Below are positions 1,836-44,525 of a stretch of DNA of 64,000 nucleotides, piece by piece. The notes beneath the pieces are model-generated. The model saw nothing but the letters and a program-made list of their open reading frames with translations. It searched no databases and was not told where the DNA came from. Location: positions 3,679,608-3,743,607 of the forward strand of contig OY761475.2 of NCBI GenBank assembly GCA_963664545.2, written 5' to 3'. Each line of letters begins with the position of its first letter. The stretch's first letter is position 1. The DNA is from Vicinamibacterales bacterium (GTDB lineage: Bacteria; Acidobacteriota; Vicinamibacteria; Vicinamibacterales; UBA8438). A program made the position numbers and the translations under genes.

Positions 1836-1882
1836 AGACACATCGAACGCCTGAGCCGTCGGGAACCCGGCGCGGCGTCCTA

Positions 1883-2476: not shown

Positions 2477-2604
2477 CCGTCCGGTCCGTCTCCGTCGCGC
2501 CGCTCGTCAGCGATGCCGTCGTCGTCCGCGCCGGTGCCGCCAGACGCCCGACGCGCGTCCGCGTCCCGCGGCGCCGGCAGGCATGATGTCCGCGTCGGCC
2601 GCCG

Positions 2605-17378: not shown

Positions 17379-17424
17379 CTGTCAACCTCCCCGCGGGATA
17401 CGACGGGGTCGTTCCGTCAGTTAG

Positions 17425-19125
17425 TCACTCGCGCAGAGCGAAGGTCGAAAGGCTGTGCCCGGCGATGACGGCCACGTACTGCCGGCCGGCCACCTCGTAG
17501 GTCATCGGGCCGTTGGTGATCTGGCCGCCGAGGCTCGTCCGCCAGAGCAGGTCGCCGGTGCGCGCGTCGAGGGCCTGGAAGTAGCCCGAACGGGTTCCCG
17601 TGAACAGCAGGTCCGAGGCGGTGGTGAGGATGCCGCTGCTCGTCACGTCGGTCATCTCGAACTTCCAGCGTTGCTCGCCGGTCAGCGCGTCGAGGGCGAC
17701 CACCGCGCCGGAGCCGGCCGCGTCGGTCCAGGTGTTGATGGGGCCGCGGGTCAGGCCCGGCACCGTGGGGGCGTCGGGCACGGGCGCGGCCGTCCTCGGG
17801 CGTCCGCCGATGAACGAGCGGCCCGGCTCGTACGCCTGCGGCTGGGCGTCGAAGACCGACGCGTAGTCATCCCACGCCGGGATGTAGAACAGCCCCGTGT
17901 GCGGGCTGAACGACGGCGAGTACCAGTTCGTGCCGCCCTGAACGCCGGGGAAGGTCGGCGCCCCCGGCGGCTGGGGGGTCTCGATGGGCCGCCCGGTGTC
18001 GTCGAGCCCCTCGGCCCAGTTGACGGTCACGAACGGCAGCCCGTTGAGGAACCGGCCCGTCGTCCGGTCGAGCACGTAGTAGAAGCCGTTGCGGTTGGCC
18101 CAGAGCATCGCCTTCAGGGTGACCCCGCCGCGCTCGAAGTCGGCCAGGACCGGTATCTGCACCGAGTCGTAGTCGTAGGGGTCGTTCGGCGTGAACTGGA
18201 AGTGCCAGCGCAGCTCGCCGGTGTCGGCGTCGAGGGCGACCACCGAGTCCGAGTAGAGGTTGTCGCCGGGCCGCTGCTCGCGGTTGAAGTCCGGGCCCGG
18301 GTTGCCGAGGCCCCAGTACATGAGGTTCAGCTCGGGGTCGTACGACCCGGTCAGCCACGCCGCGGCCCCGCCGTGCATCCACGCCTCGGGGTCGCAGTAG
18401 GTCTCGGGGTCGGGCGGGCACGGCTCCCACGTCTCGTGTCCGGGCTCGCCGGGCCCGGGGATGGTGTGGAAGCGCCAGATCTCCTCGCCGGTGGCCGGGT
18501 CGAGGGCCGCGATGAAGCCGCGGATGCCCCGGTCGCCGCCGGCCGAGCCCACGATGACCTTGTCCTCGACCACCAGGGGGGCGAGGGTGAACGAGTAGGC
18601 CAGCTCCTTGTCGGCCAGCTCGACGTCCCAGAGCTCGGCCCCGGTCGCGGCGTCGATGGCCACGACGTGGGCGTCCAAAGTGGCCATGAACAGCCGGTCG
18701 CCGAGGATGGCGACGCCGCGGTTGTTCGAGCCGCAGCAGGCGCGGTGGTCCGGCGGCGTCGCGTAGCGGTACACCCAGAACACGCGCCCGGTGCGGGCGT
18801 CGAGGGCGACGACGTCGTTGGGCCGCTGCGTCAGGTACATGACGCCGTCGACGACCAGCGGCGTCGCCTGCCACGGGCCGAAGACCGGGGTCTGGTAGAC
18901 CCACTGCAACTGCAGGTCGCCGACGTTGGCCGCGGTCACGTCGTCGAGCTCGCTGTAGCGCTGGCTGAAGTAGGTGCCCGAATAGGTCAGCCAGTCGGCC
19001 GGCGCCTGCGCGGCGTCGCGGAGACGCTCGAACGGCACCTGCGCCTGGCTCGGTGCCGCGCCGGCCGCCAGTCCGGCCACTAGCGCCGCCAGCCCGATCC
19101 GCCGCATCGTCTCGTTGGTTCGCAT
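17425..19125 (-). CDS. PQQ-dependent alcohol/methanol-family dehydrogenase (quinoprotein), periplasmic
   Basis: Signal peptide. Vicinal Cys pair (HRACCGSNN, C130-C131). Propeller W-motifs. Catalytic region TPNDPYDYDSVQ (D318-Y-D320). Confidence 0.9.
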   Translation of the reverse strand: MRTNETMRRIGLAALVAGLAAGAAPSQAQVPFERLRDAAQAPADWLTYSGTYFSQRYSELDDVTAANVGDLQLQWVYQTPVFGPWQATPLVVDGVMYLTQRPNDVVALDARTGRVFWVYRYATPPDHRACCGSNNRGVAILGDRLFMATLDAHVVAIDAATGAELWDVELADKELAYSFTLAPLVVEDKVIVGSAGGDRGIRGFIAALDPATGEEIWRFHTIPGPGEPGHETWEPCPPDPETYCDPEAWMHGGAAAWLTGSYDPELNLMYWGLGNPGPDFNREQRPGDNLYSDSVVALDADTGELRWHFQFTPNDPYDYDSVQIPVLADFERGGVTLKAMLWANRNGFYYVLDRTTGRFLNGLPFVTVNWAEGLDDTGRPIETPQPPGAPTFPGVQGGTNWYSPSFSPHTGLFYIPAWDDYASVFDAQPQAYEPGRSFIGGRPRTAAPVPDAPTVPGLTRGPINTWTDAAGSGAVVALDALTGEQRWKFEMTDVTSSGILTTASDLLFTGTRSGYFQALDARTGDLLWRTSLGGQITNGPMTYEVAGRQYVAVIAGHSLSTFALRE

Positions 19126-19281
19126 GGTTCACCTCGACTTCGGCCCTGGCCCAGCAGCCGGCCGGTTCGCAGGGGTTGGTTTCGGAACACCGGTCGACGC
19201 GGCGGTCGCGCCCGCGCGGGGCGTGAACCGTCTCGCGCCTCCGGGCACCTGGGCACGCGGAGCCGGGCTGCTTCCGCGGCT

Positions 19282-20076
19282 TCAGCCCTTCAGAGACACC
19301 AAGTACGCCAGCAGGTCGGCCAGCTCGTCCGCGTCGAGCCGGTCGCCGTAGGCCGGCATCGGCGACGTCGTCAGGACCCGGAACTCGCGCAGGTCCGCCT
19401 TGTCGAACGACCGCAGGCGCGCGTCGCCGTCGAGGATCTGCACCGTGTAGGTGTCCTCGTTGAGCCGCCGCCCGGTGACCCGCTCCCCGCCGGCCGTCAC
19501 CAGCTCGACGGGGCGGTCGATGGGCCGCATGGTGCCCGTCGGGTCGAGGAGCGAGCGCCGCAGGGCGCTCGGGGCCCGCTCGGCGCCGACCGAGGTCAGG
19601 TCCGTCGCCGCCCGGGGGCCGCGCCCCTCAACGCGGTGACAGTCGAGGCACGCGCCCCGGCCCTCGAAGAGCGCCCGGCCGCGCGCGGCGTCGCCCAGCG
19701 TCACCGCGTCGGCCTCGTAGGTCATGTTCCGGAGATAGGCGACGATGCCGGCCATCTCCGCCGCATCGAGCTCGAACGCCAGCATGCCGGTGCCGGGGAT
19801 GCCGTTCCGGATGACCCCGATCAGGTCCCGGTCGGTGGCGGCGCGGCGCAGGGGGCCGTTGCGTAGGTCGACCCCGGCGGTGGCGTCCCCCGTCTCGCCG
19901 TGGCAACTCGCGCACTGCGACAGGTACACCGCGAGGCCGTACTCGATGTCGGCGGGATCGTGCTCGACGTGATCCTGGGCGCGCACGGCGACCGCCGATG
20001 CGGCGAGGCAGACCACCGTGCCGACGACACACCGCTCCCAGAACATCCGGGGCGGTCCAAGAAACCCTCGTAGCAT
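19282..20076 (-). CDS. Di-haem c-type cytochrome, probable electron acceptor of the adjacent quinoprotein
   Basis: Two CxxCH motifs (CASCHG, CLDCHR). Start at MLRGFLGPPRMFWERCVVGTVVCLAASAVAVRAQ (ATG 20076) gives a signal peptide. Encoded directly upstream of the ADH on the same strand. Confidence 0.8.
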   Translation of the reverse strand: MLRGFLGPPRMFWERCVVGTVVCLAASAVAVRAQDHVEHDPADIEYGLAVYLSQCASCHGETGDATAGVDLRNGPLRRAATDRDLIGVIRNGIPGTGMLAFELDAAEMAGIVAYLRNMTYEADAVTLGDAARGRALFEGRGACLDCHRVEGRGPRAATDLTSVGAERAPSALRRSLLDPTGTMRPIDRPVELVTAGGERVTGRRLNEDTYTVQILDGDARLRSFDKADLREFRVLTTSPMPAYGDRLDADELADLLAYLVSLKG

Positions 20077-20293
20077 GGGACTGTCCTCCCGCGAGTCGTG
20101 GCAATCCGCGGCGCAAAGTCCGGCCGCGTTCAACGGGCGATCATCCTGCCTGACTCCGTTGCTCCTCGGTCGATATGCCCGTTGTGCGCCCTCGTCGCGT
20201 CTTGGCGGGCACGGCCGTTCTCTCCGGCCCGCCGGGCAACCCCGCGAGTCTCGTCGAGACGTGCGGTTTCCGCCGCGGGCCGCCGGGGACCGC

Positions 20294-22294
20294 TCACTCC
20301 GGCAAGGCCAGCGCCACGTACTCGCTGGGCATGTCCTCCCAGCCGACGGTCACGACGATGTACTGCCGGCCGTCGACCATGTAGGTCATCGGCGCCGCCG
20401 TCGTGCCGCCGGGCAGCTCCATCTCCCAGACCACGTCGCCGGTCAGCTTGTCGTAGGCGCGGAACATCTTGCCGCCGGCCCCGCCCCAGAGCGGCTGCAG
20501 CACGACGACGCCGGCGTTGCCGCCCTCGCCGAGGAAGACGAGCGACTTCGTCACCAGGGGCGACACCCGTCCCGGCTGGCCGAGCGGGGGCAGGTCGAGG
20601 TCCTTCAGCATAGGATGGTCGCGCGGACCGTCGCCGTTCGCCTTCGACCACAGGATCTCGCCCTTCTTCAGGTCGATGGCGACCAGCCGCCCGTACGGCG
20701 GCTTGAAGATGGGCAGCTCGTTGGGGCCCTCGAGGGGGGCCAGCGTTTCGACCACGAGCCGCATGTCCGAGCGGGGGTGCTCGGACGGCACGATGCCGAT
20801 GACCGACTCGCTGTGGACCGACGGCACGTAGAGGATGCCGGTCTCCGGATCGACGGCCGAGCCGCCCCAGTCGGCCCCGCCGACCACCCCCGGCATCTGC
20901 AGGGTGCCCTTCGTGCCCCGCGGCGAGTCGTCGACCATCGAGGGGGCGGTGAAGAGGGGGCCGGTCACGTACTGCTCGAAGACCTCGAGCGCGTCCCGCC
21001 GCAGCTCGGGGGTGAAGTCGATGAGGTCGTCGACCGTCGTCCCCTGCTGGTCGAACGGCGGCGGCTTCGTCGGGAACGGCTGGGTCGGCGCGTACCACTC
21101 GCCGGGCACGTCGCCGGGCGGCACCGGCCGCTCCTCGATGGGCCACACCGGCTCGCCCGTGACGCGGTTGAAGACGTAGGTGAACGCCTGCTTGCTCACC
21201 GCCGCGACCGCCTTCACCGGCTCGGCGCGCCCCTCGACCTGGAGGTCGAGGACGTTGGGGGCGGCGGCGAAGTCGTAGTCCCAGATGCCGTGGTGCACCG
21301 CCTGGAAGTGCCAGACGCGCTCGCCGGTGCGCGCGTCGAGGCAGACCATGCTCTCGGCGAACAGGTTGTCGCCGGGGCGGTAGCCGCCGTAGTAGTCGTT
21401 GGTCGGGGTCGACAGCGGGACGTACACCAGGCCGAGCTCCTCGTCCGCGGCGGGCCACGCCCACATGTTGGTGTTGCCGGTGTACTCCCACGACGGCCGG
21501 TCCTCGTTCAGCGCCGTCAGCCACGTCTCGTTGCCCGGCTCCCCCTCGTGGGGGACGGTGTGGAAGATCCAGATCTGCTCGCCGGTCCTGACGTCGAAGC
21601 CGCGCACGTCGCCCGGCGGCATCTCCTTCATCGCCGGCATGTTCGGGTTGGTGACGTCGCTCATGGCCGAGCCGATGACGACGACGTCGCCCACGACGAG
21701 GGGCGGAGAGCCCCAACTGAAGGTCTCCACCGGCTCGTCGAACCCCTGCGTCAGATCCACCTCGCCGCCGTCGCCGAAGTCGGGGTAGCGCTCGCCGGTG
21801 CGGGCGTCGAGGGCCACCAGGTACGAGCCGACCACCGCGAGCACGCGGGCGTCGTCGCTCCCGGAGTCCTCCCAGTAGGCGACGCCGCGGGTCTGGCGCA
21901 CGCGGGTGAACGGCTCGCCGTCGCGGTCGGGCGGGGTGTCGAACCAGAGCACCTCGCCCGTCGTCGCGTCGAGCGCCGCCACCGTGCCGAGGCCCGAGCT
22001 GATGTAGAGCCGGCCGTCGGCCATCAGCGGCGTGTTCTGCGAGGCGATCGACGGCGTGAAGTCCTCGCGCCCCTCCCGCATCGCGTCGGGCAGCACCGAC
22101 TGCCGCCAGACGATCTGGAGGTCGCCGATGGTTTCCGCGTCAATCTGGTCCAGCGGCGAGTACTTGGTGCCGGCCGCGTCCGACCCGTACGACCGCCACT
22201 CCACGTCCTGGGCGTGGCCGGTGCCGGCGGCGACCGCCGCGCAGGTTGCCGCGACCGCCGTCAGCGCCGCCGCCCGGATGAGCATCTTCCGCAT
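20294..22294 (-). CDS. PQQ-dependent dehydrogenase, glucose/quinate-type soluble paralog 1
   Basis: 666 aa with a signal peptide. Contains EWRSYGSDAAGTKYSPLDQI, YRPGDNLFAES and WHFQAVHHGIWDYDF. Closely similar to the genes at 33341-35350 and 44526-46553. Confidence 0.9.
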   Translation of the reverse strand: MRKMLIRAAALTAVAATCAAVAAGTGHAQDVEWRSYGSDAAGTKYSPLDQIDAETIGDLQIVWRQSVLPDAMREGREDFTPSIASQNTPLMADGRLYISSGLGTVAALDATTGEVLWFDTPPDRDGEPFTRVRQTRGVAYWEDSGSDDARVLAVVGSYLVALDARTGERYPDFGDGGEVDLTQGFDEPVETFSWGSPPLVVGDVVVIGSAMSDVTNPNMPAMKEMPPGDVRGFDVRTGEQIWIFHTVPHEGEPGNETWLTALNEDRPSWEYTGNTNMWAWPAADEELGLVYVPLSTPTNDYYGGYRPGDNLFAESMVCLDARTGERVWHFQAVHHGIWDYDFAAAPNVLDLQVEGRAEPVKAVAAVSKQAFTYVFNRVTGEPVWPIEERPVPPGDVPGEWYAPTQPFPTKPPPFDQQGTTVDDLIDFTPELRRDALEVFEQYVTGPLFTAPSMVDDSPRGTKGTLQMPGVVGGADWGGSAVDPETGILYVPSVHSESVIGIVPSEHPRSDMRLVVETLAPLEGPNELPIFKPPYGRLVAIDLKKGEILWSKANGDGPRDHPMLKDLDLPPLGQPGRVSPLVTKSLVFLGEGGNAGVVVLQPLWGGAGGKMFRAYDKLTGDVVWEMELPGGTTAAPMTYMVDGRQYIVVTVGWEDMPSEYVALALPE

Positions 22295-22384
22295 GTCGTG
22301 TCTCTTCCTCCGCCTCGACCCGCGCCGCCTCCGCTCCGCCGGAACGCCCGGCGCGCGTCAGGCACCCCCGTCGTCCGCGTCCGG

Positions 22385-22768
22385 TCAACCCGCTAGGTCG
22401 TCCAGCGTCACGTCCAGCGCGGCCGCGAGACGGCGGACGAGATCCAGCGTACCCGACTTCCGGCCGTTCTCGATCTGCGACAGGTATCCCTTCGAGACGC
22501 CCACCCTCGCCGCGAGGGCGTCGAGCGTCAGCCCGCGGTGTCGCCGCCACGCCCGCAGCGGGGGTGCCCCGTCCAGAATCGCGTGCACCACCTCGCCGGG
22601 GACCGTGTCGCCGGCCTCGTTCTCACGCAGGGCTCGGTCGGTGGCCGCCAGGTCCGCGGACTCCTCCAGCGAGGCGACCATGCGGCGGTACTCGTCGATC
22701 GGCACCACCGCATACTCGGGTCGACCGTCCTTCTCGATGATCTGAACGTCACGATCGATCTCAACCAT
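22385..22768 (-). CDS. Antitoxin-like protein: Phd-like N-terminal segment plus XRE HTH
   Basis: Start MVEIDRDVQIIEKDGRPEYAVVPIDEYRRMV (ATG 22768). C-terminal HTH LTLDALAARVGVSKGYLSQIENGRKSG. Confidence 0.7.
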   Translation of the reverse strand: MVEIDRDVQIIEKDGRPEYAVVPIDEYRRMVASLEESADLAATDRALRENEAGDTVPGEVVHAILDGAPPLRAWRRHRGLTLDALAARVGVSKGYLSQIENGRKSGTLDLVRRLAAALDVTLDDLAG

Positions 22769-23014
22769 GCTGCTGTTCCAGATCGTCAAGCTCCGCACCT
22801 AGAGGGAAGACCCGGTAACGACCAAGCGACAGCAAGAACTCCACGCGGGCATTCCCGCGAGCTCCGCGGCCCGGCCGGAAGACAGGCGGCCGAGTTCATA
22901 GAGCTTGACGGCGGCCAATGTGCGAAGTTCCTTGGCGAATGCATGCTCGTCGGTCTTCTCGGCCAACAACACCTTTTCCGGAATGTCGATCGCGATCCGA
23001 CGTGTTGTCGTCAT
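22761..23014 (-). pseudogene. UPF0175-family antitoxin-like gene interrupted by a 1-nt frameshift
   Basis: RBS AAGGAGAGGAAG precedes ATG 23014. MTTTRRIAIDIPEKVLL...AVKLYELGRLSSGRAAELAGMP is UPF0175-like. After about 22850 the annotated frame reads AWSSCCRLVVTGSSL*. The -1-nt-shifted frame reads RVEFLLSLGRYRVFPLGAELDDLEQQHG*, which is the expected family C-terminus. That shifted frame ends in ATGGTTGA, overlapping the next gene's ATG. Confidence 0.6.
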
Positions 23015-23120
23015 CTTCCTCTCCTTTGGCGATCCGACCGCAGCGTCGCTAGGGTCAGCTTGTGACCTGCGCAAAGTGCATGATAAAGCGAGTTGCAGGC
23101 GCGGCGCGTGTGCATTCGCC

Positions 23121-24227
23121 TTACGAGAGGCGGGAGAGCAGGTCGTCGGCGTCGACGCACTCGAAGAGCAGGTCGCCGGCTTCGGTGAGGCGGTCGGGGT
23201 CTTCGACGCCGGCGAGGAGCGCGGCCAGCCGCTCGGCGGCGGGCGCGCCGAACTTGCGGGCGGCCCGACGAACGAGGGCGGCCCGTTCGCGGGCGATGCC
23301 CTCGGCGCGGGCCTGCTCGAGCCCCCGGGCGATGCCCTCGGTGCGGCCCCGCTCGATGCCTTCGGCGCGGCCCCGCTCAAGTCCCTCGGCATGGCCTTCC
23401 GCGCGGCCGGCCCATAGCCCCGCGGTGTGGGCCTGCCGGCGGTGGCGGCCGAGCTGCGGGTCGTCGTCGGGCGTCGTGCCTTCGTCCTCGCCGAGCCGAC
23501 GGCCTACCCGGGTCAGGTCGGCCAGGGTGCGCGGGCTGAGGCGGCTCTCGTTCAGGGCGGCGTGGATCTGCGCGGTCGTCCAGGTGGGGAACGCGCGGCT
23601 CTCGTCGGCGATGCGGAAGCGGCCCTCCTCCAGCACGTAGATGGTCAGGCCCGGCCGCACGCGCCGGGGCCGGTTCGGCGACGGCTCGTCGGGGGTGTCC
23701 ACCCACACCTCGGGGAAGCCCCACGCCTCGTACACCGGCAGCTTGTTGCGCCGGACGTCGGTGGTGTGATCCACTTCGAGGATCACGTCCGGCAGGGGGT
23801 CAACCCCCAGCATGATGGCGGGGTCGCGGGGCCGCCAGACGCTCCGGTCGAGGTAGATGGTCTGGTCGGCCACCAGGACCTGCCGCGGCCGGCCGTCCTC
23901 GTCCCGCTCCATCAGGTAGACGGCCCCGGCCAACCGGAAGCGCGACCCGCGCTCCAGGCACATGCGGATCAGCAGCTCGCTCAGCAGGTTCGGGGCAATC
24001 TCGTGGACGGGGCCGGCGTCGCGCAGCACCCAGGCCGTCCCCGTCTCGCGCAGCCAGTACTCGATGCGCCCGTCGTAGGCCCACACGTCGTCCCAGGTCG
24101 ACAGCGAGACGGGGTCGCAGCCGGGGAAGTCGGAGCCCGCGGTCGGCATCGGCGCGGTCGGTGCCGGCCCGGCCGGTCTGACGGCCTTCTGGACGCGCGC
24201 GACGGCGGAGGGAATCATGGCGGCCAT
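23121..24227 (-). CDS. Uma2-like PD-(D/E)XK nuclease::DUF4351 fusion, copy A
   Basis: Start placed at the ATG conserved in all four copies (MAAMIPS). Nuclease core PLPDVILEVDHTTDVRRNKLPVYEAWGFPEVWVD. The xxxG repeat segment is 32 aa. The DUF4351-like tail is LVRRAARKFGAPAAERLAALLAGVEDPDRLTEAGDLLFECVDADDLLSRLS. Confidence 0.8.
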   Translation of the reverse strand: MAAMIPSAVARVQKAVRPAGPAPTAPMPTAGSDFPGCDPVSLSTWDDVWAYDGRIEYWLRETGTAWVLRDAGPVHEIAPNLLSELLIRMCLERGSRFRLAGAVYLMERDEDGRPRQVLVADQTIYLDRSVWRPRDPAIMLGVDPLPDVILEVDHTTDVRRNKLPVYEAWGFPEVWVDTPDEPSPNRPRRVRPGLTIYVLEEGRFRIADESRAFPTWTTAQIHAALNESRLSPRTLADLTRVGRRLGEDEGTTPDDDPQLGRHRRQAHTAGLWAGRAEGHAEGLERGRAEGIERGRTEGIARGLEQARAEGIARERAALVRRAARKFGAPAAERLAALLAGVEDPDRLTEAGDLLFECVDADDLLSRLS

Positions 24228-24446
24228 GTGCCTGCCGCCCATGATGCCACAATCGGCGCGTCGGCGGGGAAGCGGCGGCGAAGACGGGTGTTGCCGGTCG
24301 GTACGGCGCCCGAGAGTCGTAGGGAAACGCGTCTCGTCGGTCGGCATCCTGCGGATCGACGCCGTCGTCCAGGCGGGCGACGACACAGCCGTAGGGAACG
24401 GGTGTCGTCGGTCGGGGGAGCCGCAGGGCTTCCGCCGGCGCGCCGT

Positions 24447-24576
24447 CGGCGGTGCCGTTGATACGCGGGACCGGCTCAAAGCTCTGGCCCGAAAGGCGAG
24501 CTTCCGTAGGTGTGCTGCCGACGGCGGCACCGTTGACACGCGGGACCGGCTCAAAGCCCTGGCCCGAAAGGCGAGC
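24447..24576. repeat. Direct repeat, 2 x 55 bp with 75-bp period, between copies A and B
   Basis: cggcggtgccgttgatacgcgggaccggctcaaagctctggcccgaaaggcgagc at 24447-24501. The same sequence with 4 mismatches at 24522-24576. Confidence 0.85.
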
Positions 24577-24604
24577 CGTCGACGCGAGCATGCTGATCTG
24601 CCGG

Positions 24605-25654
24605 TCAGGATAAGCGGGAGAGCAGGTCGTCGGCGTTTTCGCACTCCAAGAGCAGGTCGCCGGCCTCGGTGAGGCGGTCGGGGTCTTCAAGCCCGGCGAG
24701 GAACGCGGACAGCCGCTCGGCGGCGGACGCGCCGAACTTCCGGGCGGCCCGACGAACGAGGGCGGCCCGTTCCCTGGCGATGCCCTCGGCGCGGCCCTGC
24801 TCGAGCCCCTCGGCGCGGCCGGTCCATAGCCCCGCGGCGTGGGCCTGCCGGCGGTGGCGGCCGAGCTGCGGGTCGTCGTCGGGGGTGGTGCCCTCCCGCT
24901 CGCCGAGCCGCCGGCCCACCCGCGTCAGGTCGGCCAGGGTGAGCGGACTCAGGCGGCTCTCGTTCAGGGCGGCGTGGATCTGCGCGGTCGTCCAGGTGGG
25001 GAACGCGCGGCTCTCGTCGGCGACGCGGAAGCGGCCGCCCTCGAGCACGTAGATCGTCAGGCCCGGCCGCACGCGCCGGGGCCGGTTCGGCGAGGGCTCG
25101 TCGGGGGTGTCGACCCACACCTCGGGGAAGCCCCACGCCTCGTAGACCGGCAGCTTGTTGCGGCGGACGTCGGTGGTGTGATCCACTTCGAGGATCACGT
25201 CCGGCAGGGGGTCCACCCCCAGCACGATGGCGGGGTCGCGCGGCCGCCAGACGCCGCGGTCCAGGTAGATGGTCTGGTCGGCCACCAGGACCTGCCGCGG
25301 CCTGCCGTCCTCGTCCCGCTCCATGAGGTAGACGGCCCCGGCCAACCGGAAGCGCGACCCCCGCTCCTGGCCGAGGCGGGTCAACAGCTCGCTCAACAGG
25401 TGCGGGGAGACCTCGTGGACGGGGCCGGCGTCGCGCAGCACCCAGGCCGTCCCCGTCTCGCGCAGCCAGTACTCGATGCGCCCGTCGTGGGCCCACACGT
25501 CATCCCAGGTTGGCAGCGAGACGGGGTCGCAGCCCGGAAAGTCCCGCCCCGCGGTCGGCATCGGCGCGGTCGGTGCCGGCGCGGCCGGTGCCGGCGCGGC
25601 CGGCTTGACGGCCCTCTGGACGCGCGCGACGGCGGGGGGAATCATGGGGGCCAT
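24605..25654 (-). CDS. Uma2-like PD-(D/E)XK nuclease::DUF4351 fusion, copy B
   Basis: Conserved ATG (MAPMIPP). Same core as copy A, with EVSPHLLSELLTRLGQERGS. The repeat segment is 8 aa. The tail groups with copy A. Confidence 0.8.
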   Translation of the reverse strand: MAPMIPPAVARVQRAVKPAAPAPAAPAPTAPMPTAGRDFPGCDPVSLPTWDDVWAHDGRIEYWLRETGTAWVLRDAGPVHEVSPHLLSELLTRLGQERGSRFRLAGAVYLMERDEDGRPRQVLVADQTIYLDRGVWRPRDPAIVLGVDPLPDVILEVDHTTDVRRNKLPVYEAWGFPEVWVDTPDEPSPNRPRRVRPGLTIYVLEGGRFRVADESRAFPTWTTAQIHAALNESRLSPLTLADLTRVGRRLGEREGTTPDDDPQLGRHRRQAHAAGLWTGRAEGLEQGRAEGIARERAALVRRAARKFGASAAERLSAFLAGLEDPDRLTEAGDLLLECENADDLLSRLS

Positions 25655-25747
25655 GTGCCTCTGACCATCATGCCACAATCGGCGTGTCGGCGGGGGAAGC
25701 GGCCCCGCCGGCGGCCGGTTACAATGCCCGGCGAGGGGAGGCAGGCG

Positions 25748-27016
25748 ATGAGCATGGACAGCGCCCTGATCCGCAGACTCGCGTCGTGGGCCGCCGCGTA
25801 CACGGTTGTCGCGGCCGTGGCCGGTGCCCCGGCGCACGCCGGCGACTGGCCGCAGTTCCGCGGGCCGACGGGGCAGGGCCACGCGGCGGACGCAGTCGTC
25901 CCGCTTGAGTGGAGCGAGACGGAGAACGTCACCTGGAAGACGCCGGTGCCGGGCCTCGGGTGGTCGTCGCCAGTCGTGGCGGACGGGCGCCTCTGGCTCA
26001 CGACGTCGCTGATCGACTCCGCCGAAGGCAGCTCGCTGCGGCTGCTCGCCTTCGACGCCGAGACGGGGAATCCGGCCCTCGACGTGGAGGTCTTCGACAG
26101 CAGCGAGGTCTATCCCCTCAACCCGAAGAACAGCCTCGCCTCGCCGACGCCGGTCCTCGACCCGGACGGCGGGCGGGTCTACGTCCACTTCGGGGCCACC
26201 GGGACCGCCGCCGTCAGCACCAGCGGCGACATCCTGTGGCGCACGCGCTTCCCCTACATCTCGCAGCACGGCAACGGGGGGTCGCCCATCCTCCACGACG
26301 GCAGGCTGATCGTCAGCATCGACGGCTACGACACCGCGTATCTCGTGGCCGTCGACGCCCGCACCGGCGAGGAGCGCTGGCGCTCGGTGCGGCCCGATCC
26401 GGTATCACAGGCCTACTCGACGCCGATCGTCATCGAGGTCGGCGGCCGGGAGCAGATCGTCAACGTCAGCGCGTTCCGGACCTCGGGGCACGATCCGGCG
26501 TCGGGGCGGGCGATCTGGGAGGTGGTCTACCCCCGCGGCTTCTCGAACGTGCCGCGGCCGGTCTACGGCCACGGGCTCGTCTACCTGTCGACGGGCTTCC
26601 AGCAGCCGACCCTGCTCGCGGTGCGCGCGGACGGCACCGGCGACGTCACCCGCTCGCACGTCGCGTGGCGGCTGCGGCGCGGTGCCCCGCTGACCCCGTC
26701 GCCGATCCTCGTCGGCGACGAGCTCTACATCGTCACCGACTTCGGCATCGCGACCTGCGTCGACGCCCTCACCGGCGAGATCCACTGGCAGGAGCGGCTC
26801 GGCGGCAACCACTCCGCGTCGCCGGTGTTCGCGGGCGGACGCATCTACTTCCAGAACGAGGCGGGAATCACCACGGTGCTCGCGCCGGGCACCGAGTTTG
26901 ACGTGCTGGCCCGGAACCGGCTCGACGGTTCGACCCTGGCGTCGATGGCGGTCTCCGACGGCGCGCTGTTCCTGCGCACCGACACCCACCTCTACCGCAT
27001 CGAAGAGCGGCCCTGA
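25748..27016 (+). CDS. Secreted PQQ-like beta-propeller repeat protein
   Basis: ATG 25748 follows GGGGAGG. Signal peptide then DWPQFRGPTGQGHA. The blades resemble those of 9905-11257. Lies between nuclease copies B and C. Confidence 0.8.
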   Translation: MSMDSALIRRLASWAAAYTVVAAVAGAPAHAGDWPQFRGPTGQGHAADAVVPLEWSETENVTWKTPVPGLGWSSPVVADGRLWLTTSLIDSAEGSSLRLLAFDAETGNPALDVEVFDSSEVYPLNPKNSLASPTPVLDPDGGRVYVHFGATGTAAVSTSGDILWRTRFPYISQHGNGGSPILHDGRLIVSIDGYDTAYLVAVDARTGEERWRSVRPDPVSQAYSTPIVIEVGGREQIVNVSAFRTSGHDPASGRAIWEVVYPRGFSNVPRPVYGHGLVYLSTGFQQPTLLAVRADGTGDVTRSHVAWRLRRGAPLTPSPILVGDELYIVTDFGIATCVDALTGEIHWQERLGGNHSASPVFAGGRIYFQNEAGITTVLAPGTEFDVLARNRLDGSTLASMAVSDGALFLRTDTHLYRIEERP

Positions 27017-27222
27017 TTCTCGCCGTGGCCTCGGTTTCGTGCAGCAGGTCGCGGTATCGGTTGTGCTGGATCGAGGATTCGGCCCTGATTCTCGCCGTGG
27101 CCTCGGTTTCGTGCAGCAGGTCGCGGTATCGGTTGTGCTGGATCGAGGATTCGGCCCTGATCTCGCCGCGGCCTCGGTTCCAGCAGCGGGTGTTGTATCC
27201 GTCGAAAGCGGCCGCGACATTC
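27009..27222. repeat. Tandem repeat, 72-bp unit in about 3 copies (third diverged)
   Basis: Units start at 27009, 27081 and 27153 (ggccctgattctcgccgtggcctcggtttcgtgcagcaggtcgcggtatcggttgtgctggatcgaggattc). The third unit merges into the conserved 3' flank of copy C (gtcgaaagcggccgcgac). Confidence 0.9.
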
Positions 27223-27224
27223 CG

Positions 27225-28226
27225 TCAGGACAGACGGGAGATCAGGTCGTCGGTGTCGGTGCACTCCAACAGCAGGTCGCAGGCTTCGGTGAGGCGGTCG
27301 GGGTCTTCGAGTCCGGCGACGACCGCGGCCAGCCGGTCGGTGGTGGGCGCGCCGAACTTCCGGGCGGCCAGACGAACGAGGACCTCTGCGCGTCCCTCCA
27401 AGCGGCCGGTCCAGCGGCCCGCTTCATGGGCCTGCCGCCGGTGGAGGCGCATCTGGGGGTCGTCGTCGGGCGTGGTGCCCTCGTCCTCGCCGAGCCGCCG
27501 GCCCACCCGCGTCAGGTCGGCCAGGGTGCGCGGGCTCAGGCGGCTCTCGTTCAGGGCGGCGTGGATCTGCGCGGTCGTCCAGGTGGGGAACGCGCGGCTC
27601 TCGTCGGCGATGCGGAAGCGGCCGCCGTCGAGCACGTAGATCGTCAGGCCCGGCCGCACGCGCCGGGGCCGGTTCGGCGAGGGCTCGTCGGGGGTGTCTA
27701 CCCACACCTCGGGGAACCCCCACGCCTCGTAGACCGGCAGCTTGTTGCGCCGGACGTCGGTGGTGTGATCCACTTCGACGATCACGTCCGGCAGGGGGTC
27801 CACCCCCAGCACGATGGCGGGGTCGCGGGGGCGCCAGACGCTCCGGTCCAGATAGATGGTCTGGTCGGCTACCAGCACTTGGCGCGGCCGGCCGTCCCCG
27901 TCCCGTTCTATCAGGTAGACGGCCCCGGCCAACCGGAAGCGCGACCCGCGCTCCAGGCACATGCGGGTCAGCAGCTCGCTCAGCAGGTTCGGGGCAGTCT
28001 CGTGGACGGGGCCGGCATCGCGGAGCACCCAGGCCGTCCCGGTCTCGCGCAACCAGTACTCGATGCGGCCGTCGTAGGTCCGCACGTCGTCCCACGTCGG
28101 CAGGGCTACGGGGTCGCAGCCGGGAAAGTCCCGCCCCGCGGTCGGCGTCGGCACGGCCGGCGTCGGTGCGGCCGGCCTGACGGCCCGCTGGACGCGCGCG
28201 ACAGCGGGGTGAATCATGGCGGTCAT
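27225..28226 (-). CDS. Uma2-like PD-(D/E)XK nuclease::DUF4351 fusion, copy C
   Basis: Conserved ATG (MTAMIHP; the track ORF begins 6 codons earlier). Core is conserved. The repeat segment is absent (GRLEGRAEVLV). The tail groups with copy D. Confidence 0.8.
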   Translation of the reverse strand: MTAMIHPAVARVQRAVRPAAPTPAVPTPTAGRDFPGCDPVALPTWDDVRTYDGRIEYWLRETGTAWVLRDAGPVHETAPNLLSELLTRMCLERGSRFRLAGAVYLIERDGDGRPRQVLVADQTIYLDRSVWRPRDPAIVLGVDPLPDVIVEVDHTTDVRRNKLPVYEAWGFPEVWVDTPDEPSPNRPRRVRPGLTIYVLDGGRFRIADESRAFPTWTTAQIHAALNESRLSPRTLADLTRVGRRLGEDEGTTPDDDPQMRLHRRQAHEAGRWTGRLEGRAEVLVRLAARKFGAPTTDRLAAVVAGLEDPDRLTEACDLLLECTDTDDLISRLS

Positions 28227-28619
28227 ATGCCTGCCGTCCATCATGCCACAATCGACGCGCCGGCGGGGAGCCGCAGCGAAGACGGGCGTTGCCGGTCGGT
28301 ACGGCGCTGATTCTCGCGATACCTTGCCCCGCGGGTTCTTCGGCGGCTCGAAGCGCCGCGGAGGCGCGCCGCCGCGGGCGGCGCGTGCGTCCAGCGTTGC
28401 ACCCGGCCATTTCGGGGTTGCTTCGTGCCGGCGCTATATACCGGAGCGGCCGGAGCGGGACCCGAATCCGGCGGCGGACTCGACGCGGGACCTCCGGGCA
28501 GGTCCGAGGGGCCTGAGATCGGTTGCCGGGTGGCCCGGAACTCGGTGTCTTGCCCGGACCGACGGCGCCGGCGGCGCCACGAGTGGCGGCCGGCGGAGGT
28601 CGTGTTGCGGGACCGGCTC

Positions 28620-28723
28620 GCAGACAGACTGGCGTCGCGCGGTGGGTAGCGAAAGATCCGGGTCCGGGTCGAACATGACGGCCGTGGCCGTGCAGACAGA
28701 CTGGCGTCGCGCGGTGGGTAGCG
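28620..28723. repeat. Direct repeat, 2 x 32 bp with 72-bp period, immediately upstream of the PD-(D/E)XK gene
   Basis: gcagacagactggcgtcgcgcggtgggtagcg occurs at 28620-28651 and 28692-28723. The second copy ends 15 nt before ATG 28739. Confidence 0.85.
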
Positions 28724-28738
28724 CAAGGGGGGTACGGA

Positions 28739-30091
28739 ATGTTGGAGCCAGAGATGAACGCGCTGATCGAGTCTCCTGAATTCAAACGATTCCAGGAGGA
28801 GCTGCATTCCCCGAGGTTCAGTCCGTTCGACGTCCTGCAAGTCGCGGATGTGGAAATTCGCCACAGCAACGTCCTGGCGTGGCTGCTCACCCCGGACGGG
28901 ACACACGGAATCGGCGGCCGATTCCTGCGCAAATTCGTCGAGCACCTGACCCGTCGCCACGACGCTGCGCTCTTCCGTCGTCTGACTGGTTTCGACGACA
29001 AGGACAATGTCGAGATCAGGAGAGAGGACTACCACGACGGCGGCTACGCTGACATCACCGTCGGTTTCAAGGCGGAAAGGGTGCTGCTCATCATCGAGAA
29101 CAAGGTCGTGGGATGGTACCCCGAGGCCGAAGATCAGGCCAGGGGCTATCAGGAGACGTTTGTCGAAAAGTACAGGGGCCGGTACGACTACTATCCCGGC
29201 GTTCTGCTTACTACTTCGGACTCACTGGAAGGAAAGAACGAAGAACGCAAGAGGCACCACAGTTCATTCCCTCTATTCCCTCTGAGTTGGGGCGAGGTAC
29301 GTGAGATCATCCGGTCCCTGCTGAAGGACGGCGAGAGCGGGAACTTCGCGGACGGCCAAGTCCGAGATTTCGTGAAGCGATACGTCGAGGTCATTGAGGA
29401 TAGACTGATCCACGCCGGAGACGATCCCGCCGAGCGACTGCTCAACAAGCATCCACAGATATTCGAGAAGCTGCAGGACGAATCGGCTCTGTTGGACAAA
29501 GTGGACGAACCGCACAGGGCTACCATCAGACGGTGGATGGAGAACTTCGAAGGGAGGCCGCGCAGGCTGAGAGAAGAGGTTGCGGAGTACCTGACGCAGA
29601 AGGGATGGATCGATGCCGGCCGCATCAAGAACACGGGGGTTAGGGGCGACTTACCGGGCTGGCGATGGCTGGTGTGGTTTCACATGCCGTCCGGCGAGGA
29701 GCTAGGCATCCGCGAGGGTTACGGCTGGCGGTTCACCTTCGAACCTCGCAACGTGACCGTGACCGTGCAGTTCGGCACACTATGGGGACTGAACCCGAAG
29801 GACCCGGACCCGAAGTGGCAGCGGATCTGGAGCTTTCTGCAGCACACGCCAATCGATCGGGACAGATCGGCGAGATACCCCATGGAAAAAGGCGTCATCT
29901 ATCGACACAATCTTCTGAAGGGCGCGGAACTCGCCGGGCCGTTCGAGGAATCGGTCAAGTTGCTTCACCAAGGATTGGACCAGTTCTTCGGTCCAGACGG
30001 AGATTACGGGCGGATAGAGCGCTATTTCAGGTGCCTCGCCTTCGATCCGCAGGAACCACGGCCTCTCGCTGACGGCGAGACCAAATCGTGA
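28739..30091 (+). CDS. PD-(D/E)XK nuclease superfamily protein (450 aa) in a low-GC segment
   Basis: N-terminus FSPFDVLQVADVEIRHSNVLAWLLTPDGTHGIGGRFLRKF, followed by YADITVGF...VLLIIENKV. This matches a PD-(D/E)XK family I recall (FNIFxxL..E..HSNFLAWLL...D(I/L)...IENK). Sampled 60-nt lines are 52-58% GC versus about 73% in the flanking copies. An alternative start is ATG 28754. Confidence 0.7.
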   Translation: MLEPEMNALIESPEFKRFQEELHSPRFSPFDVLQVADVEIRHSNVLAWLLTPDGTHGIGGRFLRKFVEHLTRRHDAALFRRLTGFDDKDNVEIRREDYHDGGYADITVGFKAERVLLIIENKVVGWYPEAEDQARGYQETFVEKYRGRYDYYPGVLLTTSDSLEGKNEERKRHHSSFPLFPLSWGEVREIIRSLLKDGESGNFADGQVRDFVKRYVEVIEDRLIHAGDDPAERLLNKHPQIFEKLQDESALLDKVDEPHRATIRRWMENFEGRPRRLREEVAEYLTQKGWIDAGRIKNTGVRGDLPGWRWLVWFHMPSGEELGIREGYGWRFTFEPRNVTVTVQFGTLWGLNPKDPDPKWQRIWSFLQHTPIDRDRSARYPMEKGVIYRHNLLKGAELAGPFEESVKLLHQGLDQFFGPDGDYGRIERYFRCLAFDPQEPRPLADGETKS

Positions 30092-30238
30092 CGAGCTTCT
30101 ACGGCGCGGACCGCGTAGGGTCCAGGATGACCGCAGCACGCTGTCTCATCGGACGAGCGGTCCTCGGACGGCAGACCGCGCGGCTCGGTACCAGTCTGCG
30201 GGTCGCGGTATGCGTCGAAAGCGGCCGCGACAGTCCCG

Positions 30239-31285
30239 TCAGGCCAGACGGGACAACAGGTCGTCGGCGTCGGCGCACTCCAAGAGCAGGTCGCAGGCCT
30301 CGGTGAGGCGGTCGGGGTCTTCGAGCCCGGCAAGGACCGCGGCGAGCCGGTCGGCGGTGGGCGCGCCGAACTTCTGGGCGGCCAGACGAACGAGGAGGGC
30401 GCGTTCCCGCGCGATGCCTTCGGCGCGGCCCTGCTCGAGCCCCTCGGCGTGCCCCTCCGCACGGCCGGTCCAGCGGCCCGCTTCATGGGCCCGCCGCCGG
30501 TGGAGGCGCATCTGGGGGTCGTCGTCGGGGGTGGTGCCCTCGTCTTCGCCGAGCCGCCGGCCCACCCGCGTGAGGTCGGCCAGGGTGCGCGGGCTCAGGC
30601 GGCTCTCGTTCAGTGCGGCGTGGATCTGCGCGGTCGTCCAGGTGGGGAACGCGCGGCTCTCGTCGGCGATGCGGAAGCGGCCGCCGTCGAGCACGTAGAT
30701 CGTCAGGCCCGGCCGCACGCGCCGGGGCCGGTTCGGCGAGGGCTCGTCGGGCGTGTCCACCCACACCTCGGGGAACCCCCACGCCTCGTACACCGGCAGC
30801 TTGTTGCGCCGGACGTCGGTGGTGTGATCCACTTCGACGATCACGTCCGGCAGGGGGTCCACCCCCAGCATGATGGCGGGGTCGCGCGGCCGCCAGACGC
30901 TTCGGTCGAGGTAGATGGTCTGGTCGGCGACCAGCACCTGCCGAGGCCGGCCGTCCTCGTCCCTCTCCATCAGGTAGACGGCCCCGGCCAACCGGAAGCG
31001 CGACCCGCGCTCCAGGCACATGCGGATCAGCAGCTCGCTCAGCAGGTTCGGGGCAATCTCGTGGACGGGGCCGGCGTCGCGCAGCACCCAGGCCGTCCCC
31101 GTCTCGCGCAGCCAGTACTCGATGCGCCCGTCGTAGGCCCACACGTCGTCCCAGGTCGGCAGCGAGACGGGGTCGCAGCCGGGAAAGTCCTGTTGCGCGG
31201 TCGGCGTCGGCGCGGTCGGCGTCGGCGCGGCCGGCCTGACGGCCCTTCCGGTGTGCGCGACGGGGGTGGCAATGAACGGGGCCAT
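30239..31285 (-). CDS. Uma2-like PD-(D/E)XK nuclease::DUF4351 fusion, copy D
   Basis: Conserved ATG (MAPFIATP). The core is nearly identical to copy A. The repeat segment is 12 aa. The tail groups with copy C. Confidence 0.8.
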   Translation of the reverse strand: MAPFIATPVAHTGRAVRPAAPTPTAPTPTAQQDFPGCDPVSLPTWDDVWAYDGRIEYWLRETGTAWVLRDAGPVHEIAPNLLSELLIRMCLERGSRFRLAGAVYLMERDEDGRPRQVLVADQTIYLDRSVWRPRDPAIMLGVDPLPDVIVEVDHTTDVRRNKLPVYEAWGFPEVWVDTPDEPSPNRPRRVRPGLTIYVLDGGRFRIADESRAFPTWTTAQIHAALNESRLSPRTLADLTRVGRRLGEDEGTTPDDDPQMRLHRRRAHEAGRWTGRAEGHAEGLEQGRAEGIARERALLVRLAAQKFGAPTADRLAAVLAGLEDPDRLTEACDLLLECADADDLLSRLA

Positions 31286-31377
31286 ACGGCTGTTCCCAGT
31301 ATGCCACAGCCGGCGGCCGGCCGCCGCGCGGTTGCGGCCCGGTCGCGGCTGGAGCGGTGGCGAAGCGACGCGATCAG

Positions 31378-33029: not shown

Positions 33030-33340
33030 CGATTCACATCTCCGATCGTCAATCGCGCCTCCGGCTCGGCGGAAGCGTCTCTTGTCACTGCCAGTCGCCA
33101 CGGCCACTCCCGCCCCTGACGGGCGGACGGAAACGCTTCCGTGGCGCGCCATCGCGACGCCTCCTATCATAGCGCCCTAGCGGGCGCATCCCGTCGCATC
33201 CCGGGCGATCCGTCGTCGACGGAGTGGCAGCTCGCAACGCTTCCCACACGGCACCCCGCCGGGCGCACGGTGCCGAAGCGGCGCTCGGCCGGAGTGCGTC
33301 GTCGCGCCGACGCGCCGGCGGGCAGGCGGCAGTTCGGCCG

Positions 33341-35350
33341 CTACTCCGGCAGCGCCAGCGCCACCAGCTCCGGCACGTCGCCGCCCACCGTCAGCGCGAT
33401 GTACTGCCGTCCCTCGTGCAGGTAGGTCATCGGCGTGCCGATGGGGCCGCCCGGCAGGTCGACCGAGCCGACGACGGTGCCCGTCGCCTTGTCGCGCGCC
33501 ACCAGCCGCGGGCCGTCGTCGGTCCCGCCCGCGGTGAGGCCGCTGACGAGCAGCGTCTTCGTGATCACCACGCCGCCGCGGCCGTCGCCGCCGAGCGGCG
33601 GCAGGTCGAGGTCGCGCAGCGCGGGATGCCGTCGGACGCGGTCGCCGTCGCCGTTCGGCCGCATCCACGCGTGCTCGCCCCGTTTCAGGTCGATCGCGGT
33701 CATCCGCGAGTAGGGCGGCTTCAGCAGCGGCAGCCCGTTCGGCATCCGCGGCTGCACACCCGCGGCGAGCCCCCGCATGGTGTAGCGGAGGTTGCCGCCG
33801 TCGGCGGGGTCCGGCGTGTAGTACTTGATGACCGAGAACCGGTTGACCGACGGCACGTAGAGCAGACCCGTCTCGGGGTCGACCCCCGAGCCCGCCCAGC
33901 CCGCGCCGCCCCCGACGTGGGGGCGCTGAATCGTGCCCTGCAGGCCGCCGTCGTGGCTCAGCGTCGGGGGCGAGAAGAGCGGACCGAGCCGGAAGTTCCG
34001 CACCGCCTCGACGGCCATCGCGCGGATCTCGGGCGTGAAGTCGACGAGGTCGTCGATGCCCACCCCCTGGTACTCGAACGGCGGCGGCTTCGTCGGGAAC
34101 GGCTGGGTGGGCGACAGCACCTCGCCCTCCATGTCGCTGTCGGTCTCGACCGGGCGCTCCTCGATGGGCCACACCGGCTCGCCCGTCACCCGGTCGAAGA
34201 CGTAGGTGAAGCCCTGCTTGCTCACCTGGGCGATCGCCCGGACGGGTTCGGGCCGGCCCTCGACGGCGACGTCGACGAGGCTGGGGGCGGCGGGGAAGTC
34301 GTAGTCCCAGACGCCGTGGTGCACGGCCTGGAAGTGCCACATCCGCTGGCCGGTCTCGATGTCGAGGGCGACCACGCTCTCGGCGAACAGGTTGTCGCCG
34401 GGCCGGTGGCCGCCGTAGTAGTCGCCGGTCGGCGTGCCCGTCGGCAGGTACACGTAGCCCAGCTCCTCGTCGGCGCTCATCGGCGGCCACACGTTGGTGT
34501 TGCCCGAGTAGCGCCACGACTCGTTCAGCCAGGTGTCGGCGCCGAAGTCGTCCCCCTGCGGCACCGTCCGGAAGACCCACCGCACGTCGCCGGTGCGCGC
34601 GTCCACCCCCTTGATCCACCCCGGCGGCGCCTCCTTGGCGATGACCCCGTCGGAGATGACGTTGGGCGTGACCACCACGTCGCGGGCGACGATGGGCGGC
34701 GACGCCACCCCCATCAGGTTGCGGCCGCGGCGGGTGGTGCCGCCGCGGTCGGCGCGGGGGATGCCCGCCATGAGGTCGACGCGCCCGTCGTCGCCCCAGT
34801 CGAGGACCGGCTCGCCGGTGTCGGCGTCGAGCGCGAGCAGGTACGCCTCGTGAGTGCCGAAGAAGATGCGGGCGTCGTCGCCGTCGCTCCACCAGGCGAC
34901 CCCGCGCGAGTTGTTGAAATGGGTCGGCCGCCCGCGCAGGTAGATCTGCGGGTCGTGCACCCAGATGGTCTCGCCGGTCGCCGCGTCGACCGCCGCCACC
35001 TGGTGCAGCGCCGTCGAGAGGTAGAGGACGCCGCCCGCCATCAGCGGCGTCGCCTGGAACATGCGGATGCCGAGGCGCGGGATCTGCTCGCGCAACGCGT
35101 CGAGATCGAGAGCCGCGTCGGCCGACTGCCAGCGCCAGGCGATCTCGAGATCGCCGAAGTTGCCGGCGTCGATCTGGTCGAGCGGCGAGTACTTGGTGCT
35201 GCCGGCGTCGCCGCCGTAGCTCCGCCACTCGCCGTCCGCGGCGCCGTACTGGGCGAGCGCGCCGGCGGGGGAGAGCGCGGCCGCGCACCACGCGAGGAGG
35301 ATCACGGAAACGAGGATCGTCGAGCGACGCCGTGTGCACTCCATCGTCAC
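33341..35350 (-). CDS. PQQ-dependent dehydrogenase, glucose/quinate-type soluble paralog 2
   Basis: 669 aa with a signal peptide. EWRSYGGDAGSTKYSPLDQI, HRPGDNLFAES and WHFQAVHHGVWDYDF are collinear with 20294-22294. Confidence 0.9.
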   Translation of the reverse strand: MTMECTRRRSTILVSVILLAWCAAALSPAGALAQYGAADGEWRSYGGDAGSTKYSPLDQIDAGNFGDLEIAWRWQSADAALDLDALREQIPRLGIRMFQATPLMAGGVLYLSTALHQVAAVDAATGETIWVHDPQIYLRGRPTHFNNSRGVAWWSDGDDARIFFGTHEAYLLALDADTGEPVLDWGDDGRVDLMAGIPRADRGGTTRRGRNLMGVASPPIVARDVVVTPNVISDGVIAKEAPPGWIKGVDARTGDVRWVFRTVPQGDDFGADTWLNESWRYSGNTNVWPPMSADEELGYVYLPTGTPTGDYYGGHRPGDNLFAESVVALDIETGQRMWHFQAVHHGVWDYDFPAAPSLVDVAVEGRPEPVRAIAQVSKQGFTYVFDRVTGEPVWPIEERPVETDSDMEGEVLSPTQPFPTKPPPFEYQGVGIDDLVDFTPEIRAMAVEAVRNFRLGPLFSPPTLSHDGGLQGTIQRPHVGGGAGWAGSGVDPETGLLYVPSVNRFSVIKYYTPDPADGGNLRYTMRGLAAGVQPRMPNGLPLLKPPYSRMTAIDLKRGEHAWMRPNGDGDRVRRHPALRDLDLPPLGGDGRGGVVITKTLLVSGLTAGGTDDGPRLVARDKATGTVVGSVDLPGGPIGTPMTYLHEGRQYIALTVGGDVPELVALALPE

Positions 35351-35518
35351 CTCCGGCCTCCACTATACTCGGCTCGACGCCGCGGGCGGTCATCAGCCGC
35401 TGGGCAAGTGCCCAACCTTTGATGCTTGGCGGGTCTTCAACCTGGACGGGTTGCCGGAGGCGGTGCATCCGCGGGGTCGGGGTCGTCATCAGCGGCGACG
35501 GACGCACGAGGGCCGACG

Positions 35519-44481: not shown

Positions 44482-44525
44482 CGGCGCACGCCCCGCGTAG
44501 CGCGGGGCGTGCAACCGTGGAAGGG

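Follow-up and report, generated by a model that had tools for sequence, protein, structure and literature searches.

The closest described counterparts of the genes considered here are the RpnL/RpnS systems (YhgA-like, PF04754/COG5464), in which a PD-(D/E)XK nuclease is followed by a variable C-terminal tail. This variable Rpn C-terminal domain is translated from an internal start as RpnS, which blocks the toxic full-length nuclease; RpnS dimerises via a long first helix with four-residue repeats of variable number and inhibits only a partner of equal repeat number, and one Rpn system gives phage protection (Zhong et al., 2023; PMC10400941). No autonomous mobility was found for Rpn genes (PMC10400941). 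A second relevant group is the Uma2 family (PF05685, formerly DUF820, COG4636) of putative restriction-endonuclease-like proteins, for which lineage-specific paralogue expansions are a known trait (PMC1274311) and for which no function of any member is established in the literature searched. Here, we describe four genes of a Vicinamibacterales bacterium, located in a 64,000-nt window of contig OY761475.2 (the window being the whole stretch of DNA analysed, ~72% G+C) and named A, B, C and D in coordinate order, each of which joins a Uma2 head to an Rpn-type tail. By analogy with the Rpn systems, we interpret A-D, with modest confidence, as Rpn-like, tail-regulated toxic or defence nucleases in which the YhgA-like head has been replaced by a Uma2 head. 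No published description of such a fusion was found in the literature searched. The original prediction, made from this DNA sequence, held that no function had been described for such a fusion or array, overlooking the RpnL/RpnS work of 2023 on four-residue repeat variation in a nuclease tail.

The Uma2 head and the Rpn-type tail

The four genes are as follows.

23121..24227, minus strand: copy A, 368 aa; Uma2 head plus Rpn-type tail; Pfam Uma2 25.4 bits, tail hidden Markov model (HMM) 99.7 bits
24605..25654, minus strand: copy B, 349 aa; Pfam Uma2 26.0 bits; positional orthologue of the ancestral copy, which is divergently oriented to the PQQ_2 gene
27225..28226, minus strand: copy C, 333 aa; repeat almost deleted; Pfam Uma2 32.0 bits, DUF4351 E 0.044
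30239..31285, minus strand: copy D, 348 aa; Pfam Uma2 27.3 bits; counterpart of the second copy in the related locus L009 (6059-7075)

All four open reading frames (ORFs) are intact and lie exactly where the original prediction had placed four near-identical, co-oriented minus-strand genes of 333-368 aa. In protein alignment, their products are pairwise 87-91% identical, and the gene pairs differ at 76-102 of 990 aligned sites.

The Pfam Uma2 model (PF05685, gathering cut-off 27 bits) matches all four copies at 25.4-32.0 bits, with C and D above the cut-off and A and B slightly under it, and most relatives carry a precomputed PF05685 label. The motif PLPDVI(L/V)EVDHTTDVRRNKLPVYEAWGFPEVWVD is present in every copy, and 82 relatives show little or no variation at the acidic and Lys residues of PLPDVILEVDHTTDVRRNK: D153 and K162 are invariant, D147 and E151 are kept in at least 90%, and all are intact in A-D. 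An AlphaFold2 model of D built from the same 82 relatives (mean predicted local distance difference test score, pLDDT, 86) retrieved the Uma2/DUF820 structures 6okh, 3ot2 and 1wdj as the top three Protein Data Bank (PDB) matches in Foldseek, each with probability 1.00 and template modelling (TM) scores of 0.54-0.59 on the target. A-D thus agree with Uma2 in both fold and motifs. The solved structures are single-domain proteins of 178-186 residues, whereas A-D are extended by a middle segment of 55 residues and by the Rpn-type tail. In each of the six copy pairs, the ratio of nonsynonymous to synonymous divergence (dN/dS) over core residues 33-256 falls within 0.06-0.22, from which it follows that all four heads are under purifying selection and are not decaying duplicates. 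The proposed Uma2 assignment of the head, with its acidic and Lys residues intact, is thereby upheld; on sequence and model grounds, the head is an active-looking, predicted Uma2-fold PD-(D/E)XK nuclease, which would probably have nuclease activity. In this respect A-D depart from RpnL/RpnS, whose head is YhgA-like: no match to PF04754 was obtained with Pfam for any of the four copies, nor to the NCBIfam Rpn model for D and A, the copies scanned.

The link to Rpn resides in the tail. A 65-position profile of the tail, used in an exhaustive HMMER search of 1.84 billion cluster representatives, yielded 1700 matches at E<=1e-3 and 684 at E<=1e-10, and domain content was assessed for the best 148 of the tail-profile matches. 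The Pfam Transposase_31/YhgA-like model (PF04754, Rpn family) was passed by 26 of these 148 (best E 1.6e-31), the tail profile reaching PF04754-headed proteins at E 1e-18 to 1e-24, and a local HMM recognised Rpn-type N-termini in 45. Because the profile finds the same tail on PF04754 proteins, we regard the tail, as judged from sequence profiles, as a genuine Rpn-family C-terminal module of a type barely reached by the DUF4351 model. The Uma2 fusion is a minority architecture among tail carriers. Within the window, the tail profile matches exactly four places, copies A-D, at 83-107 bits, and no Rpn-like gene is present there; in a related Vicinamibacterales genome, an Rpn-like gene with the same tail lies 9 kb from a Uma2-tail gene (L001, 19663-20799).

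The tail had been described as DUF4351-like and as known from Rpn/YhgA nucleases. The second part stands, given the presence of the same tail on PF04754 proteins, but Pfam does not bear out the first at threshold. DUF4351 (PF14261, gathering cut-off 25 bits), a family of stand-alone RpnS-like small proteins, has the same motif layout as the tails of A-D, namely repeats, then the hh(R)hhxxKFG signature, then helices, yet all four copies fall below the curated cut-off: only C gives a match (14.3 bits, E 0.044, model positions 3-56 of 59), with none for A, B or D. The model matched one of 17 family tails and six of the 148 tail relatives (E<0.01, best E 1.1e-5), and the tail is best named a DUF4351-like sister family.

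Among the 148 relatives, 57 are <=140 aa long and may be stand-alone tails or gene fragments, and 24 consist of 2-4 tandem tail modules. Multi-tail and short single-tail proteins could act in trans as partners of tail-bearing nucleases. In the proteins of 2-4 tandem tail modules noted among P0121-P0136, each module opens with MLAE..V.EW and has its own xxxG repeats.

Quantised repeats in the tail

The tail consists of one long helix of four-residue xxxG repeats and, after it, a small bundle of helices. In both models, full-length and tail-only, the repeats lie inside a single 50-residue helix (residues 257-306 in D), with three short helices after it. Alignment of the copies gives 32 aa of repeat in A, 12 in D, 8 in B and none in C between GRAEG and IARERA, just as had been reported for this locus. 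The corresponding segments are listed below.

23298..23408, minus strand: xxxG repeat of A, codons 274-310; 12/24-nt DNA repeats; Tandem Repeats Finder periods 24 and 60 at 23294-23408
24782..24820, minus strand: repeat of B, codons 279-291; Tandem Repeats Finder period 12/24
27384..27407, minus strand: remnant repeat of C (GRLEGRAE); linker of 30 aa, outside the 29+4n register
30416..30466, minus strand: repeat of D, codons 274-290, from the alignment
23121..23297, minus strand: tail helical bundle of A, after the repeat; equivalents in B at 24605-24781, in C at 27225-27383 and in D at 30239-30415

The repeat is encoded by 12/24-nt tandem DNA repeats, and its variation extends well past this locus in steps of four residues. 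The linker from DDDPQ to KFG measures 29+4n residues in 109 of 111 relatives (range 29-73), the same quantisation recurs in species-representative genomes, and repeat number differs between orthologues at the same site. In some relatives (P0055, P0103, P0114), another reading frame gives Pro/Arg/Ser-rich sequence after the nuclease head, which points to a shift of frame in or close to the repeat, whether genuine or introduced by assembly errors.

These features parallel RpnL/RpnS, in which the first long tail helix likewise carries a variable number of four-residue repeats, each with one hydrophobic residue and charged residues or Gly, and in which multiple, sometimes tandem copies per genome and a lack of autonomous mobility are shared with the Uma2-tail family. 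The post-repeat bundle of A-D, with ~55 aa and three helices, is longer than that of E. coli RpnS. By the same analogy, the tails of A-D would oligomerise, their helices pairing in register and controlling the nuclease. Gly-rich helical repeats also occur elsewhere: the GxxxG/AxxxG repeats of FliH/YscL and the deca-GX3 motif of Yae1/Lto1 are length-variable and serve helix-helix association. Like those of A-D, they are helical segments with Gly at every fourth residue, and the A-D repeats weakly match the FliH models and Yae1_N. The likeness is confined to repeat composition, however; the scores fall well short of the cut-offs, and neither the proteins around those repeats nor their functions are related to A-D.

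Synteny, local duplication and exchange between copies

Clustered at 90%, the Uma2-tail family has more than 2000 members, whose labels read 'Uma2 family endonuclease' or 'hypothetical'. In species-representative genomes, we found more than 583 loci, distributed among Vicinamibacterales, several lineages of Gammaproteobacteria and Spirochaetia, all of them in metagenome-assembled genomes. Many genomes have several copies, with several paralogues per genome at unrelated sites. Of 79 loci, ten were matched more than once: nine of the ten hold 2-3 copies within 10 kb, and at the remaining one, L038, a single gene was aligned in two pieces. The tblastn searches returned no plasmid or phage copies.

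One copy occupies the same syntenic site in at least 20 Vicinamibacterales species, in the order pyrroloquinoline quinone (PQQ) dehydrogenase, AhpC-like gene, PQQ_2 gene (opposite strand), Uma2-tail gene, in some cases a helix-turn-helix (HTH) gene, PQQ dehydrogenase and cytochrome c. In the dozen closest syntenic species, the flanking proteins are ~77-97% identical to those of the window, mostly at least 86%; for the Uma2-tail protein, identity is 74-82% across the whole length and 83-91% when the core is compared. The upstream flank of B matches that of the syntenic copies in other species. As in the window, locus L009 carries an additional copy between AhpC and PQQ_2; the end of the same upstream gene precedes both this copy and D, which makes D its counterpart. 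Residence of the gene at this one syntenic site in Vicinamibacterales is long-standing, and local duplication gave rise to the further copies in this genome. The PQQ dehydrogenase/cytochrome c cluster that frames the locus is itself syntenic across Vicinamibacterales; in the window, at least four PQQ-dependent dehydrogenase paralogues (~50% identical) and a cytochrome c gene lie at 17400-22300, 33300-35400 and 44500-46200.

The sequences flanking the four genes contain two short conserved elements.

24241..24251, minus strand: 5' motif TGTGGCATNNT of copy A, also at 25667-25677, 28240-28250 and 31298-31308; 12-13 nt before the ATG, reading TGn followed by nAnnnT
27201..27218, minus strand: 3' flank GTCGCGGCCGCTTTCGAC of copy C, also at 30214-30231 in D; downstream of C and D only

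Nucleotide homology among the copies begins ~30-90 nt upstream of the shared ATG and ends at the stop codon; the sole homology past the stop codon is the 18-nt sequence common to C and D, and A and C have ~90 nt of additional 5' flank in common. Exactly four matches to TGTGGCATNNT occur in the 64 kb, one ahead of each ATG, compared to 0.07 expected by chance, and many species retain the TGn-nAnnnT pattern upstream of their orthologues and paralogues. The motif is therefore a candidate family-specific extended -10-like promoter; a scan with consensus promoters and terminators was uninformative in DNA of 72% GC. The conserved non-coding flanks of the original prediction are confirmed: the 5' motif is present four times and the 3' flank is shared by C and D. 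Homology stops at the stop codon in A and B.

Relationships among the copies vary along the gene. Informative sites support the grouping AB|CD 25 times, AD|BC five times and AC|BD four times, and the tails pair A with B and C with D. In residues 33-110, by comparison, A is 99% identical to D, and the two share the following tract.

23907..24100, minus strand: 194 nt of A with a perfect counterpart in D (30965-31158), interpreted as the product of gene conversion

This perfect match spans 27 consecutive polymorphic sites (p<2e-4, 0 of 5000 permutations), and the longest identical tracts in the other copy pairs measure 76-137 nt. Nearest relatives also differ by gene segment. In the core, the four copies are mutually closest (92-98% identity); the link segment of A is 100% identical to P0002, a protein from another assembly; and the N-terminus of D is unlike those of A, B and C. 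Synonymous divergence between the AB and CD types is 0.56-0.68 in the 19-codon link versus 0.15-0.21 in the core, values that rest on small counts. Taken together, the A-D tract and the segment-specific nearest relatives support gene conversion, which had been suggested from the mosaic relationships of the copies. Outside the core, dN/dS reaches 0.48-0.92 in the tail and ~0.6-1.7 in the disordered N-terminus. We propose that a resident chromosomal gene was duplicated locally, each copy with its own putative extended -10-like promoter, and that the copies would then have diverged through slippage of the 12/24-nt repeats and gene conversion.

Other genes among or next to the copies include the following.

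25766-27016, plus strand: PQQ_2 beta-propeller gene, between B and C
28739..30091, plus strand: PDDEXK_4 gene, 450 aa, between C and D; 58% GC; Pfam PF14281, E 3.7e-17; context only, outside the Uma2-tail family
22385..22798, minus strand: Phd/YefM-like plus HTH_3 fusion gene, downstream of A, from Pfam

Pfam identifies the PQQ_2 and PDDEXK_4 genes as the PQQ propeller and the low-GC PD-(D/E)XK gene that the copies had been said to bracket, and no transposase was detected among the scanned ORFs of the array, again as predicted. The PDDEXK_4 gene lies in a 58%-GC island within 72%-GC DNA and looks like a recent horizontal insertion. In PADLOC, its product scores as a member of PDC-S26 (E 4e-29), a candidate defence family. 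A Phd-like/HTH_3 gene also adjoins the syntenic copy in L011, L013-L015 and L080 and is absent in others. Downstream of A, a UPF0175 gene (within 22385-23200, minus strand) is followed by the Phd/HTH_3 gene; both are antitoxin-like, and no recognisable toxin partner adjoins them. Genes for McrBC, Fic, BrxC/D-like proteins and Phd occur near some relatives. In L080, a single syntenic Uma2-tail gene is flanked by McrBC (170-3339), 6 kb upstream, and by the reverse transcriptase of a group II intron (19147-20487), 8 kb downstream. The genomic context of the Uma2-tail genes is compatible with a conflict system and does not demonstrate one.

Several further repeats were also observed. Where the PQQ_2 gene and C face each other with their 3' ends, the spacer contains a 72-nt unit repeated 2.4 times with 98% identity (27008-27179), and the A-B spacer, just downstream of B, contains two copies of a ~75-nt unit beginning CTCGCCTTTCGGGCCAGRGCTTTGAGCCGGTCCCGCGTRTCAACGG (24440-24590, minus strand). 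Farther away, at 56380-57006, two interleaved pairs of perfect direct repeats (149 nt with a spacing of 359, and 104 nt with a spacing of 302) occupy ~630 nt in which Tandem Repeats Finder reported nothing.

Competing explanations and implications

Several results weigh against an Rpn-like role of A-D in toxicity or defence. A direct resemblance to E. coli RpnS was sought and rejected: hhalign detected no significant similarity of the tail to E. coli RpnA-S or YpaA, Foldseek with the tail-only model (pLDDT 84) gave no PDB match better than E 2, with the three-helix-bundle dimer of RpnA-S (7TH0) absent from the list, and a sequence-profile search of the PDB with the tail returned nothing significant and no Rpn entry. 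Small helical domains are hard for Foldseek, so the missing 7TH0 match is weak negative evidence. An intragenic, RpnS-like antitoxin finds no support at the sequence level, because no conserved internal start codon precedes the tail among 50 relatives: of the four copies only C and D, and of the relatives a minority, have an in-frame ATG 12-16 residues ahead of the repeats, 32 of the 50 have CTC at that codon, and no Shine-Dalgarno-like sequence is found there. Unlike RpnL/RpnS, the Uma2-tail genes in the loci examined have no adjacent small tail gene either, and no stand-alone tail gene was found in the window or in the 10 kb around any of 80 related loci. The idea that co-resident paralogues are insulated by unequal repeat numbers was also discarded, as co-resident copies show no avoidance of equal numbers (5 of 46 pairs equal versus 10% of random pairs). 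With PADLOC, the copies scanned (D and A) matched only PDC-S17, at 16 bits and E 1e-3. Finally, order-wide synteny is unusual for a defence gene, and many relatives stand alone among metabolic genes.

A rival reading is a chromosomal housekeeping or recombination nuclease, such as a repair or recombination factor or a DNA-binding regulator, bound up with its conserved locus and not with phage conflict, the tail being a dimerisation device only and the extra copies neutral local duplicates. We consider this explanation unlikely. It accounts for the site between PQQ-dehydrogenase genes conserved in at least 20 species, the purifying selection on the core, the lack of plasmid and phage copies and the many relatives among metabolic genes, but it fits poorly with several paralogues per genome at unrelated sites, with the occurrence of the family in unrelated phyla without a PQQ context, with a fast-evolving tail and N-terminus (dN/dS ~0.5-1.7), with repeat numbers that vary among same-site orthologues and with a tail shared with Rpn toxins. 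A selfish, self-propagating nuclease gene, homing-like or akin to a non-canonical transposon, that copies itself and its promoter to new sites is distinctly improbable. The original prediction had raised such an element, and the conserved promoter-like 5' flank of each copy, the ~90 nt of extra 5' flank in A and C, the common 3' flank of C and D and the multi-copy status of the family in many genomes would agree with it. Against it stand the stable position across an order (one syntenic site in at least 20 species), the end of homology at the stop codon in A and B, the absence of target duplications, of a transposase and of plasmid or phage copies, terminal inverted repeats not exceeding chance around the copies, and the lack of autonomous mobility of related tail-bearing nucleases (PMC10400941). 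An array produced by faulty assembly, or one made up of decaying pseudogene copies, is scarcely credible: only the general risk that repeats pose in metagenome assemblies speaks for it, whereas the copies differ at 76-102 of 990 sites as well as in flanks and cargo, L009 holds two copies at the same two positions, and four intact ORFs with a core dN/dS of 0.06-0.22 do not resemble pseudogenes. The interpretation of A-D as Rpn-like nucleases with a Uma2 head, whose toxicity and role in defence are suggested by analogy with Rpn, is the one that we retain. A defence or exclusion role, which the original prediction had also raised, may be proposed from this analogy and a loose genomic context.

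A broader version of this interpretation is possible but doubtful, namely that the Rpn-type tail is a portable, length-coded specificity or regulation module that has moved to Uma2; the Uma2 subfamily, and perhaps its wider expansions, would then be conflict toxins regulated in trans by tail-only or multi-tail proteins, and the nuclease may itself drive the gene conversion and the changes in repeat number by which its own paralogues diversify.

For Uma2 (COG4636), a large, paralogue-rich family with solved structures, a subfamily with the tail of an Rpn anti-phage toxin provides a testable functional lead. The Rpn tail appears as a modular unit found on two nuclease heads, alone and in tandem arrays, which widens the 'antitoxin within toxin' theme, and the locus offers a compact case of paralogues that diversify through gene conversion and slippage of repeats while occupying a conserved site in the chromosome.

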